Positions 54,785-64,000 of a DNA stretch of 64,000 nucleotides are shown piece after piece; the first letter of the stretch is position 1, and every line of letters starts with the position of its first letter. Source of the stretch: a virus; IMG/VR virus record IMGVR_UViG_3300035034_001216, positions 1 through 64,000 of that record; one strand, written 5' to 3'. Under the pieces are notes generated by a model. The model searched no databases. It had not been told where the DNA came from and worked only from the letters and a program-made list of their open reading frames with translations. The translations under genes were made by a program, and so were the position numbers.

Positions 54785-56252
54785 TTTCTTTCACTTCTTC
54801 AAGGAGTTTGTTTTTAATATAAGTAACTAACTTTTTAACAACTGTATTTACTTTTACTCTTTGTTCTTCAGCAGCGGGTATAATTTCATAGTCACGTTCT
54901 AGTAATATAGAATCTATAACCCTTCTCGAATCTTGAGACTTTTTATCGTCTATAAACATAAACAATCCTAGTTTTAATTTAGTTTCATGACACGAATTAC
55001 ACGGGATTTTGTTATTAAAACCAATAACTTGTTGTGAAACACAACTTTCACATTCAGTCCAATACCAATCAATCCTCTTTCTAGAATCATCTATTGCTGT
55101 TAGAGTATCGACTACAATTTTACCAAGCTTTGTTTCTTCAGCAAAATCTAAATCAAGATATTCTCTTTTAGAAACAAATTGATAAATTCTTTGTCGTATA
55201 GCCATTGTTGTAAAATCTTGTGCTTTTTCTATTTCTTTACAACAACCTTTACTAATACCACATTGATCTCCGTCAAAAGCACTATTACAATGACATGCAA
55301 ATGGATTAACACTTGTAATTATGTTCTTTTTGTAATAAGAATTTTGTAAAGAAGCAGTTCTATAGAAAAACGTAAAAGCTATACTTCTTATAACATCATT
55401 ATCAGGAAAAATATCAACTTGATGAGAATTTGCTTTTGATGCCCATAAATTGGACATATAAACATTCATATTCCTATGTGCTGAATCATTAATACCAGTA
55501 GTACTAGGAGTGCTACGAACATTAGGATGAGTACTTCCAAAATTAGATTGCCTGGGATTGTTGAATGACTGTTCTCTATGTCCCTGATTCCAATTAGTTG
55601 TAGACCTGTGTTTAGTTGGAAATTCATCTTTAAATGAATCATTTGAAAAGTAATAACCTTTATTTGAATCACTCTGTATAAAATTTCCATGCACAACAGC
55701 AGGTCTTCCCGCTTTTAAAACCACTATCTTATTACTCCACCCCATGTCGTAAAAGTCTCTGAATTCATCATCAAAGTGTTTCTTCATGTACTGCATAAAG
55801 GTAAAATCATTTTCTTTTGATAAAAAATGATCTGTAAATAACAAAGTATCAGAAGTATCTTCTTTAGAATTACTAACTTTCATTCTAAACTTACTTATGT
55901 ACCCATTGTGAAATACAACATTGTTCTTAGTTAATATACGTTTTTGTTTGTTTTCATCTTCATTTGATATTATAGGATGTGTTGTTTTTAAATTACTAGC
56001 AGTTCCGGGAGATGAATTTCTTAAGTGTACAACAATTAATTTATCCTTCAACAACCCTTTTCTGTCAAACCAATTTAATGATTTCAACATAGAAGCTGCT
56101 GTTTTAAATCCCTTCTTTACTAGTATATCTTCTTTGTTTTTTATAGCAAAACCAAACCCCGTATTATTTTTAACACTTGAGTTTTCAACACATTTTGTTA
56201 TAAATTCATGATCATATTCACTCGATTGCTTCTTGTATATTATTAGGCACAT
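54735..56252 (-). CDS. Class II (Ntn) glutamine amidotransferase-like protein with Cys-rich C-terminal extension
   Basis: MCLII N-terminal nucleophile, GFGFA, HLRNS, HP, FHNG, SDT, YFSN. Confidence 0.8.
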   Translation of the reverse strand: MCLIIYKKQSSEYDHEFITKCVENSSVKNNTGFGFAIKNKEDILVKKGFKTAASMLKSLNWFDRKGLLKDKLIVVHLRNSSPGTASNLKTTHPIISNEDENKQKRILTKNNVVFHNGYISKFRMKVSNSKEDTSDTLLFTDHFLSKENDFTFMQYMKKHFDDEFRDFYDMGWSNKIVVLKAGRPAVVHGNFIQSDSNKGYYFSNDSFKDEFPTKHRSTTNWNQGHREQSFNNPRQSNFGSTHPNVRSTPSTTGINDSAHRNMNVYMSNLWASKANSHQVDIFPDNDVIRSIAFTFFYRTASLQNSYYKKNIITSVNPFACHCNSAFDGDQCGISKGCCKEIEKAQDFTTMAIRQRIYQFVSKREYLDLDFAEETKLGKIVVDTLTAIDDSRKRIDWYWTECESCVSQQVIGFNNKIPCNSCHETKLKLGLFMFIDDKKSQDSRRVIDSILLERDYEIIPAAEEQRVKVNTVVKKLVTYIKNKLLEEVKENEERSTRESSPAVSGE

Positions 56253-61924: not shown

Positions 61925-62688
61925 TTATTTAATAGGGTTAACTATTTTTTCAACTTCATTGATATAATAATTATAATTGACATCATAATCTAAAAAATCA
62001 ACTTGTTGAAAAAATTTATTAAAATAAGTAACAAGATATTTACTTTCTACTTCAAAAGATCTGTCATCTACAAATACACCATCAAATAGCGTATTCTCAT
62101 ATACAGATTCTTTCCCTTCAAGAGGTGGCATTTTCTTTATTAGTTTTTTACCATGATTAGAAATATAATACCTTACTGTTTTACTAGCTTTCTCTACTGT
62201 TTTATCAGAACTTAAAACATCTTTTAAAATGTAATGAGATCCTTTATTAGATTTAACTGCTTTACAAAAGTCATATATGTCGTCACATTCATAAATAGTC
62301 TTTTTATAGTCTATATTATGAACGTAATAATCATATATTGCCTTTGCTACAATTATCATAGAATGATTCTTATGAGGCTCACGGTTATAATCATACCAAC
62401 CTTTAAGTTTCACTCTATCGTCTACTTTTTCATTTCCAGTTTTGATTGCTAGGTAATTATTTACATTACTCATAACAAGTAAGTCATAAAACGTTTCTTC
62501 TAAAACAAATTTCGTTTTATTTTCCCATTGTCTTTGTAATGATCTAAATTCATCTAACCTTTCTTTACTAAATAGTACAACTACACCATCAGTATTAGCA
62601 GATAAAACAGAAAATCCTGATATATCAAGATCTTCTATAAGCATTAACAATGATAATTGACCAATAGTGGTCGTTTGGATTGTTACTA
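61925..62688 (-). CDS. polB: Family B DNA polymerase, 3' exon (C-terminal palm and thumb)
   Basis: VTIQTTTIGQLSLLMLIE...SANTDG...VNNYLA...KLKG, RYYIS match crAss PolB; the frame continues upstream of the track's TTG to the predicted 3' splice site (62689/62688) and hits TAA just beyond it. Confidence 0.88.
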
Positions 62689-62721
62689 CTTACCACACTC
62701 AGTCACCTGAGCATAATAAAA

Positions 62722-63354
62722 TTACGTTAATTTATCAGCAACTGTTTCTCTGTTGAATATCCATATTTTAATGAAATTTCTACTGTTATTATTATAAGCA
62801 GGTTCTGTACATGTTTCGCACATTTCAGTAAGACATCCATCTAATATTGCCCATTCATTTGTCACACCTATCGGTTCATTTTTTGTACTTTGTCCGCCAG
62901 AAGTCATGTTGGTAGATACTAGAGTAAAAGCTGGACATTTTGTTAGTATCCTATCAAGAATCATATTTTGAAAAACCCATTTTATAAGTTTTTCTTCTAT
63001 AAATTCTTTGTTATACAAAACACCTTTAAGTTCAGAAATCATATTAGGTATTAATGTCGCAGATGAGTATTTTAAAGATGGATTATCTCGAGTCCCTTTC
63101 AAAAATGAAACTATTCTGCGAGATTCTCCATAAGCTGAGTTGATACCTGACATTTGGAGAGCACCACATGATATGTCAGTGCCTCCTACTCCTAAATGTT
63201 TATTGCCTGAGTAATTTATTAGTTCTTTAATACGAGATAAAACTTCAGGATTATCTTTTAATGTCTCAGGCGTTAGCTTTGAACTTTTTTTTTCTTCTAC
63301 TTTTAGTACTTTCAATTTGCTCATAATAAATTGTTTTTTTTGTTTTGATTTCAT
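62722..63354 (-). CDS. Intron passenger gene in the P9 region (hypothetical, no homing-endonuclease motif)
   Basis: ATG 63354 (or 63324) after an A-rich leader; SCGALQMSG...NNNSRNFIKIW; no HNH, GIY-YIG or LAGLIDADG signature seen. Confidence 0.75.
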   Translation of the reverse strand: MKSKQKKQFIMSKLKVLKVEEKKSSKLTPETLKDNPEVLSRIKELINYSGNKHLGVGGTDISCGALQMSGINSAYGESRRIVSFLKGTRDNPSLKYSSATLIPNMISELKGVLYNKEFIEEKLIKWVFQNMILDRILTKCPAFTLVSTNMTSGGQSTKNEPIGVTNEWAILDGCLTEMCETCTEPAYNNNSRNFIKIWIFNRETVADKLT

Positions 63355-63385
63355 AATTTTATTATTTGTAGTCTGGACCATCTCA

Positions 63386-63697
63386 TCAACCGCATTCAAT
63401 GTCACATGTAGGACTATTAAGTCCACATTTACATTTAATTTTAGGTTGCTCGTTGTTGGCCTCTACGCCGTTTTCTAATTTTTCACATAAACTAATAACT
63501 TCTTCATCATCACCATAAGCGCATAATGCTTCTAAAATTAATTTAATGTCTTTATTATCAAGTGACGGCACGGGATTGTCAAATTTTTTAAGTACTATTT
63601 TACAAAAGTCTACTTCAAATTGCTTTTGGAGATCTTCTTGAACTGCTTTTATATAATCAGGATTTTCATCTGATTGAAATTGTACTATAATTTTCAT
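63386..63697 (-). CDS. Intron passenger ORF overlapping the ribozyme core (hypothetical, 103 aa)
   Basis: ATG after an A-rich leader in L5; open through P5', P4', P6, P7, P3' and P8; TGA at the P8'/J8-7 junction. Confidence 0.55.
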   Translation of the reverse strand: MKIIVQFQSDENPDYIKAVQEDLQKQFEVDFCKIVLKKFDNPVPSLDNKDIKLILEALCAYGDDEEVISLCEKLENGVEANNEQPKIKCKCGLNSPTCDIECG

Positions 63698-63723
63698 ATT
63701 TTTTTTAAATTTGAGTTTCCCCG

Positions 63724-63896
63724 TTAGCTAATATTAAATTCTGTTAAATATTTACATTCTGATTTTTTACCACCACATTTAATTATCTCATATCTTTTTG
63801 ATAATTTACAATTACATGATGGTGGTCCACAATGTGAACCGGGTATATAACTTCCATTACCACACCCATCATCATAATGTTTACATTTTTTTTCAT
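63724..63896 (-). CDS. Cys-rich intron passenger ORF in a P3.2-like loop (needs A9 rather than A8 after the ATG)
   Basis: ATG-A8, then frame CKHYDDGCGNGSYIPGSHCGPPSCNCKLSKRYEIIKCGGKKSECKYLTEFNIS* with TAA at 63726-63724; as written the ATG frame gives only 37 aa. Confidence 0.45.
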
Positions 63897-64000
63897 AATT
63901 TTAATATTAACCCCTCTTTCGAGGATTCCGAGTTATTCGAAGTACATTACTGTACTAAGCCGCTAGTTTGACTTTATTATTAAATCGTTTTAAGAATATT

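Follow-up and report, generated by a model that had tools for sequence, protein, structure and literature searches.

A putative 2522-nt group I intron with coding loops in a family-B DNA polymerase gene from an uncultured phage of lake water

Known polymerase introns and the interrupted phage gene

Phage polymerase genes are established hosts of group I introns, as the cited passages report for Bastille and SPO1 (PMC11878797) and for the PolB of crAss-like phages (PMC7886860). In the cited part of a 45-intron phage survey, the introns of the Bastillevirinae have a mean length of 802 ± 342 nucleotides (nt) and mostly harbor one internal coding sequence or none (PMC11878797). The stretch considered here, positions 1-64000 of the 72,521-nt virus contig IMGVR_UViG_3300035034_001216 (the window), carries on its minus strand part of a polB gene that is interrupted by an insert of 2522 nt (contig 65210-62689). 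Contig numbering is continued past the window edge, and the side beyond position 64000 was read from the contig itself. Judged by its sequence anatomy, the insert is quite probably a group I intron that would be spliced from the transcript of a family-B DNA polymerase gene; the phage is uncultured and stems from lake water. While introns of this class are known from phage polymerase genes, what is different here is scale and content.

With the IA-like introns of T4, Twort, SPO1 and Bastille, the insert shares a highly conserved site in a replication gene of a virulent phage, elements of the P, Q, R and S type, GNRA-capped hairpins in P2 and the P9 region, an early in-frame stop and a terminal G. 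It departs from this type in its length, in its four or five open reading frames (ORFs), in a guide that lies 1247 nt from the splice site, and in that no HNH, GIY-YIG or LAGLIDADG gene was found in our copy. Moreover, its host gene encodes a family-B polymerase, whereas the polymerases of Bastille and SPO1 belong to family A. For uncultured crAss-like phages, group I introns are likewise reported in PolB and other core genes; those introns were recognized via their endonuclease domains, and the cited passages give no RNA anatomy (Yutin et al. 2021, PMC7886860). Long coding inserts in L1 that part the 5' splice site from the guide are described, in passages on fungal mitochondria, for cox3-i2 of Hypomyces aurantius (PMC4964425) and cob of Ophiostoma (PMC7902536). 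Those organellar inserts are LAGLIDADG genes or whole introns, whereas L1 of the present introns holds two to four genes without a known family, in a phage with coupled transcription and translation. A narrow literature search found no phage group I intron with a kilobase-scale L1 or at least four ORFs. In Aeromonas phage Aeh1, nrdA is a gene in pieces that arose from insertion of a free-standing endonuclease, with neither ribozyme nor splicing; our locus resembles it as an essential phage enzyme gene cut by intervening genes, but differs by a complete core that covaries, along with a guide and a terminal G.

The upstream part of polB is an ORF of 384 codons (contig 66339-65185) that ends in ...SWMYDPLTKTNDFR* and matches the DNA polymerase profile phrog_1252 (E 1.5e-82, profile positions 52-425). 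At its boundary with the insert the DNA reads tat gat ccg t|taactaaaac, with 65211 as the last exon base, while the 3' exon begins with UAGU (62688-62685) and is preceded by G at 62689. Polymerase motifs B and C flank the insertion point, which splits the Leu codon following YDP after its first base. Nine codons into the intron the exon frame meets a stop, and in ours and three related introns (L002, L032 and L033, introduced below) it ends 4-9 codons past the splice site. According to the cited passage, an in-frame stop soon inside the intron is common in phage group I introns (PMC3984707). In-silico joining of 65211 to 62688 yields a single open frame of 630 codons, whose product aligns with six uninterrupted homologues without any gap within 30 columns on each side of the junction; the closest of the six, P0007 (626 amino acids, aa), is 52.5% identical to the joined product. 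In a tblastn search, both polB halves were exactly two codons apart in all 29 fetched loci with adjacent exons, several of which are duplicate records of one contig.

These results bear on a sequence-only reading of the window, which had predicted that the unseen 5' exon ends in ...YDP with CCG-U, that ligation would be in frame and that L1 would be long. As a genuine blind prediction, this exon end was found beyond the window, the joined frame is free of gaps at the junction, and L1 measures 1247 nt. The same reading had spoken of a crAss PolB: a phage DNA polymerase profile is indeed matched, but the crAss label could not be established, as the best 30 of 762 matches to named phages (Sashavirus, Proteus, Vibrio, Rheinheimera and Maribacter phages, ~34% identity) include none that is crAss-like. 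Several metagenomic homologues of the polymerase sit on contigs of ~100 kb.

The five closest proteins in a collection of 5.8 billion (64-79% identity, 378-385 aa) all stop 0-8 residues past YDPL, and hence the split is conserved; the residues past the splice site differ in P0003-P0006. Four lake-water DNA runs carry the stretch as contigs, with identical sequence and no joined-exon form, and no RNA run was found to contain it. The same polymerase family is also broken at further sites (L010/L025/L026, L036-L038; proteins P0044, P0045, P0058 and P0096): ~900 nt separate residues 75 and 76 of the 3' part, another ~1.2 kb intervene near residue 262-306, and some proteins are truncated within motif B (..LNGG|).

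Guide sequence and catalytic core

Three relatives are informative for the comparison. L002, which together with two short duplicates is the one relative with an insert at the YDP site that is available as DNA (78% identity), carries a syntenic insert of 2495 nt that agrees with ours in the order of its parts, in the guide and in the core segments. Conservation between the two inserts comprises P4, P6, J6/7-P7, P3', P8 and J8/7-P7'. In L032 (3243-5929) and L033 (7921-11770), a homologous intron occupies another polB site, FGTG|GIHG.

Direct reading of the minus strand confirmed the bases on which the sequence-only reading was built, i.e., ACUA (63967-63964), G (63963), CGG (63962-63960), TAG (63957-63955) and UAGU. 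The guide, ACUAGCGG, directly precedes P2 and is separated from the 5' splice site upstream by 1247 nt, its G being intron nucleotide 1248. In P1, CCGU faces GCGG as U.G, G-C, C-G and C-G, with U 65211 opposite G 63963. P10 is a 4-bp Watson-Crick match of ACUA with UAGU in our copy and in L002, while the counterparts are ACU/GGU in L032 and AUACU/GGUAU in L033. At the other insertion site, the exon ends in GGGU| and the guide reads G-CCC; the 3' exon, GGU(AU), faces ACU, and ACU-G-CCC is found at the equivalent structural position. In all four introns, the guide lies 29-30 nt 5' of the conserved ACUCGGAAU, right before P2. The guide thus differs along with the exon while its structural position is fixed, which is the behavior expected of a working internal guide sequence. 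This guide-exon covariation is observed between two insertion sites; within the YDP-site lineage the comparison is with L002 only, whose guide is identical.

The core, from P2 to P9, forms the 3' half of the intron. In our copy, the P4 and P6 strands are complementary and only ACAA separates P7 from P3', the interval in which introns of the phage-type subgroup IA2 have P7.1/P7.2. A 16-nt motif of the Q element occurs in 35 viral contigs, of which 29 are AT-rich and share the layout and 6 are GC-rich chance matches, and it is absent from 185,579 species-representative prokaryote genomes. Family members were parsed for the R and S elements without use of P7 complementarity, which gave 25 distinct members with both; duplicates (L040, L056, L073, L066 and L077), eight loci without a parsable R and two without S were left out. 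P7 pairs at five of five positions in each of the 25, as GACUA/UAGUC in 14, GACUG/CAGUC in eight and GGCCA/UGGUC in three (ours, L002 and L054). P8 does so in 23, with C-G, A-U or G-C as its first pair; of the two exceptions, one is due to mis-parsing at an endonuclease gene inserted there. Covariation extends to P2 and P9 (Table 1) and to the terminal hairpin, which reads CUUAG/CUAAG in L032 and ACUUG/CAAGU in L033, with GNRA loops throughout. The introns of our contig and its three relatives all end in ...GUGGUA(A)G|, the terminal G standing at the 3' splice site.

A link to recognized group I introns is provided by L050, a compact family member without ORFs whose full length aligns with Rfam RF00028 (Intron_gpI), scoring 47.3 bits (E 1e-10), and in which Rfam aligns the ACGGGG motif as P4. 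By blastn, its J8/7-P7-P9 part matches 29 named phages (18 of Staphylococcus, nine of Bacillus and two of Cellulophaga) over 24-28% of the query. Among these are phage Bastille as well as Twort-like and Bastille-like records, and one record annotates the spot as Intron_gpI. The exon boundaries of L050 were sought but could not be defined.

From this anatomy, the following reaction can be proposed. P1 would form across 1.25 kb between CCGU|UA and UAGCGG, with a U.G wobble at the cleavage site, where an external guanosine would attack. Then, ACUA would bind the first four bases of the 3' exon as P10 and terminal G 62689 would enter the G site, before exon ligation affords the mRNA for the 630-aa polymerase.

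In pattern scans, three stretches contained GAGATGGTCCAGACTAC, two of them chance matches in GC-rich coding DNA and one a tRNA-gene intron; AACTCGGAATCC..GGGG occurred in 39 stretches, in which the only family members were the three already known; and AATCCCGTG recurs at 55008, where it falls within a gene by chance. On L043, a 180-kb phage contig, a tRNA gene (minus strand, ~1970-2720 in reverse-complement coordinates) apparently contains an intron that shares the S element and has a GNRA hairpin, a ...UGUGGUAG| tail and an ORF of ~165 aa.

Table 1. Parts of the interrupted polB gene and of its putative intron, in contig numbering.
Feature	Position	Strand	Remarks
polB 5' exon	66339-65211	minus	376 aa to ...SWMYDP plus first base of Leu codon
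5' splice site and P1 5' strand CCGU|UA	65214-65209	minus	U at 65211 in U.G pair
L1 ORF 1	64755-65198	minus	147 aa; AUG 12 nt past 5' splice site; overlaps tail of unspliced exon frame
L1 ORF 2	63980-64768	minus	262 aa from AUG overlapping ORF 1 stop; 291 aa from upstream AUG
Internal guide sequence ACUA-G-CGG	63960..63967	minus	CGG and G pair with exon CCGU (P1); ACUA pairs with 3' exon UAGU (P10)
P2 hairpin, GUAA tetraloop	63941..63956	minus	folds in four close relatives with differing stem sequences
Proposed P3 5' strand CUCG	63929..63932	minus	inside conserved ACUCGGAAU; complementary to CGAG 63452-63449
Peripheral insert between P3 and P4	63724..63924	minus	hairpin CCUC-GAAA-GAGG (63924-63913) and stem UUAAUAUU/AAUAUUAG (63910-63903 with 63735-63728)
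P4 5' strand ACGGGG (P element)	63719..63724	minus	pairs with UCCCGU 63575-63570; same motif of L050 aligned as P4 by Rfam
P4 3' strand UCCCGU (Q element) and P6 5' strand GCCGU	63565..63575	minus	
P6 3' ACGGC, J6/7 GUAGA, P7 5' GGCCA, ACAA, P3 3' CGAG, P8 5' CAACC (R element region)	63444..63471	minus	
P8 3' GGUUG, J8/7 AUGAGA, P7 3' UGGUC (S element)	63376..63391	minus	
Core-threaded ORF	63386..63697	minus	103 aa; starts in L5, runs through P4', P6, P7, P3' and P8; UGA inside P8 3' strand
P9-like 12-bp stem	63365-63354 with 62724-62713	minus	encloses ORF; compensatory change U-A to C-G in L002
P9-loop ORF	within 62713..63365	minus	210 aa from AUG 63354; 234 aa from upstream GUG
Terminal hairpin CUCAG-GUGA-CUGAG, tail UGUGGUAA, terminal G 62689	62689..62711	minus	
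polB 3' exon	61925..62688	minus	UA completes Leu codon, then VTIQTTTIGQL...SANTDG...; phrog_1252 positions 438-651, E 5.3e-51

Alternative explanations for the split gene

Several observations weigh against a spliced intron, and they concern the guide, its distance from the splice site and the core. As to the guide, P1 is short, with four exon pairs and two intron pairs: the intron start had been expected to be complementary to CAAACUA but reads UAACUAAAAC, so that only its first two bases (UA) lengthen P1. A local fold pairs the GGCUU part of the guide with AAGUC just upstream, which could compete with P1. Furthermore, when any U-A or U.G is accepted at the splice pair and G.U is allowed throughout, 8 of 1430 eligible positions of our intron score the same or better. 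It might therefore be argued that the complementarity between guide and exon is a coincidence, and that the true guide or 5' splice site lies elsewhere. Under a strict rule, demanding a G opposite the last U of the exon, at least three Watson-Crick pairs in P1 and at least three pairs in P10, two of 2512 positions qualify in our intron, one of them being the proposed guide. The other, at intron position 2314, is situated inside the P9-loop ORF rather than beside P2 and has no counterpart in L002. A single position qualifies in L002 (of 2485), in L032 (of 2677) and in L033 (of 3840), and in each case it is the proposed site at its fixed distance before ACUCGGAAU. In addition, the implied splice site is the only one that gives a gap-free polymerase. 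Coincidence is hence the explanation to which we assign the least probability.

As to the distance, guide and splice site lie 1.25 kb apart, and ribosomes probably traverse the stretch between them, so that conditions are unfavorable for P1 formation; in the paralogous intron of L032 and L033, the guide is even 1.7-2.2 kb away from the splice site. This difficulty would disappear if L1 were a separate mobile element, such as a nested intron or an excisable cassette, whose prior removal brings the 5' splice site to the guide. In this context, ACUA at intron nucleotides 3-6 (contig 65205-65208) duplicates the bases just before the guide G that form P10, and the intron 5' end is thus also complementary to the start of the 3' exon; the repeat recurs in L002, and as ACU in L032 and L033. 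It could be the remnant of an insertion, and nested introns in P1 loops do exist in fungal mitochondria according to the cited passages (PMC7902536). Alternatively, the repeat may be a trace of L1 expansion or simply fortuitous. However, core motifs do not occur a second time in L1 or in any other part of the contig, the whole contig contains no match to an Rfam family at gathering score, and two overlapping ORFs occupy L1 almost completely. Removal in two steps consequently appears very unlikely.

As to the core, the P3 pairing is proposed as CUCG/CGAG, which does not vary between our copy, L002, L032 and L033; covariation is therefore unable to test it and lends it no support. The ~200 nt inserted between P3 and P4 of our copy stand at an unusual place, where L032 and L033 have two hairpins and L002 none. 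The alignment of L050 remains 2.7 bits below the curated cut-off (gathering threshold 50 bits), and none of 13 other family loci reaches the Rfam gathering score. For our own copy, Intron_gpI gives no match at E<=10 in 4 kb, in the whole contig or in a 401-nt core window. The evidence for group I identity is thus comparative, and the ORFs inserted in L1, L5-L8 and L9 are likely the cause of the sub-threshold scores.

The missing Rfam match would also suit a polymerase that works in pieces. Here, the ribozyme would be a decayed relic without splicing, a 384-aa N-terminal and a ~240-aa C-terminal polypeptide would assemble, and the four or five intervening genes would be ordinary ones. Functional split genes that result from insertion of endonuclease genes are known in T4-like phages, as exemplified by the ribonucleotide reductase of Aeh1. 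Consistent with this scenario, the split has been inherited stably down to 64% protein identity, and the 3' part in L002 has an in-frame AUG near its start. Yet, the three codons before this AUG still encode the LVT that follows from the predicted splice site, with a synonymous change from ACA to ACC, while the first in-frame start of our 3' part is a UUG, use of which would lose 14 conserved residues. Furthermore, core helices, guide, terminal G and the two exon complements have all stayed intact and covary between insertion sites, which a relic would not maintain. Independent assembly of two polypeptides is therefore regarded as improbable, and a spliced intron as the favored explanation. 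For the latter, formation of P1 over 1.25 kb, splicing of the RNA and expression of the L1 genes through translational coupling are inferences.

Intron genes and their implications

L1 is filled nearly end to end by two overlapping ORFs. The second ends in ...NILKTI*, with its TAA (63982-63980) 13 nt before ACUA and its last seven codons inside the window (63980..64000). The sequence-only reading had likewise placed an ORF in L1, but proposed that the frame IFLKRFNNKVKLAA* enters from the window edge, runs through the guide and ends at 63955, possibly encoding the homing endonuclease. While L1 does bear ORFs, there are two, in other frames, and both terminate before the guide. The proposed frame has a stop 17 codons upstream of its TAG and hence is no gene; the ORF that really crosses the window edge is the one ending at 63982-63980, in another frame and not through the guide. 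Neither L1 ORF matches a homing endonuclease family in Pfam, PHROGs or NCBIfam.

Both ORFs recur in L1 of L002, whereas L1 comprises 1655 nt with three ORFs in L032 and 2211 nt with four in L033. The first L1 ORF starts 12-17 nt past the splice site in all four introns. As their start codons overlap the preceding stop regions, the L1 genes are probably translated from the unspliced pre-mRNA by ribosomes arriving from exon 1. The ORFs of L002 have diverged yet remain open, with 53%, 29%, 38% and 23% identity to ours; the first two values refer to the syntenic counterpart of the 147-aa ORF and to a 265-aa counterpart of the 262-aa ORF, the latter also aligning as a family with ORFs of L032 and L033. 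At E<=0.001, there are 431 homologues of the 147-aa protein; ~280-aa proteins often contain it as their C-terminal domain or half, and the motif RRSLGDIY..KYYYP is conserved. One member is fused to a SWIB domain, and apart from this fusion the longer homologues match no Pfam or PHROG family. A search with the 262-aa ORF retrieved only itself, and its family profile added one protein. For the products of 147, 262/291, 103 and 234 aa, there is no Pfam family at E<=0.1, nothing convincing in PHROGs or NCBIfam and no homing endonuclease of the LAGLIDADG, GIY-YIG, HNH, His-Cys, PD-(D/E)xK or EDxHD family, and PDB sequence profiles gave no significant match for the intron ORFs. Atlas leads (Rep-like features, 0.88; a FUR-like fold with TM 0.46-0.54 for the 147-aa ORF) are below counting level. 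Just downstream of polB, L033 also carries a free-standing paralogue of an L1 ORF (12785-13378).

A further ORF of 103 aa is threaded through the core itself (Table 1). The stop of this frame falls between -2 and +23 nt of the P8 3' strand in 22 of the 25 family members. Its peptides display the motifs DNPVPS[LI]D and NGVE[TA][ND]N, and even the compact, 197-nt L050 retains a version of 26 codons. The ORF in the P9 loop has homologues in the same loop of L002, L032, L033, L058, L061, L062 and L072, while L1 of L032 and L033 contains paralogues. If any of the intron proteins serves in mobility or splicing, this recurrent P9-loop protein, in which no known motif is recognized, would be a better candidate than the L1 genes. 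By comparison, a LAGLIDADG gene lies between P7 and P3' in L033 (LAGLIDADG_2, E 8.6e-33) and in L044.

In the hairpin loop between P3 and P4, a Cys-rich frame (KCKHYDDGCGNG...) of ~56 codons (63724-63896, minus strand) lacks a start codon. An AUG at 63896-63894 is one base out of this frame across a run of eight A (63893-63886), and one extra A would join both. Mis-sequencing of the homopolymer, a slippage site or decay of the gene could each account for the offset. In L002, a similar Cys-rich N-terminus is fused to the core-threaded ORF. As a separate observation, transfer-messenger RNAs (tmRNAs) are encoded on related contigs (L010 5359-5690, L026 6599-6930, L060 9765-10142 and L074 708-1042; Rfam 58-107 bits); that of L002 (4115-4381) is permuted, scores 56.7 bits and lies ~3.7 kb upstream of polB.

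Conceivably, these group I introns of aquatic phages, with the genes they carry, make up a class that has not been described before, a suggestion that we put forward tentatively and regard as rather doubtful in its full extent. Such a class would be characterized by an ORF obligatorily threaded through the core from L5 to P8 and by recurrent L9 cargo of unknown fold, and in its polB lineages L1 would have grown to 1.2-2.2 kb, with two to four genes whose translation is coupled to that of the upstream exon. Long-range P1 pairing and translation of the intron genes would then exclude each other, which might constitute a switch that partitions the pre-mRNA between intron genes and polymerase.

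Taken together, the locus stretches the accepted anatomy of phage group I introns, with a guide 1.25 kb away from the splice site, four or five ORFs in place of one or none, and no recognizable homing endonuclease. Such introns escape Rfam-based annotation, which detected none here, and split polymerase genes of metagenomic phages may hence be mis-called as truncated. If the intron splices, its proteins would represent new intron-associated families to be assayed for endonuclease or maturase activity, and P1 would be able to form over a translated, kilobase-scale loop in a bacterial system in which transcription and translation are coupled.

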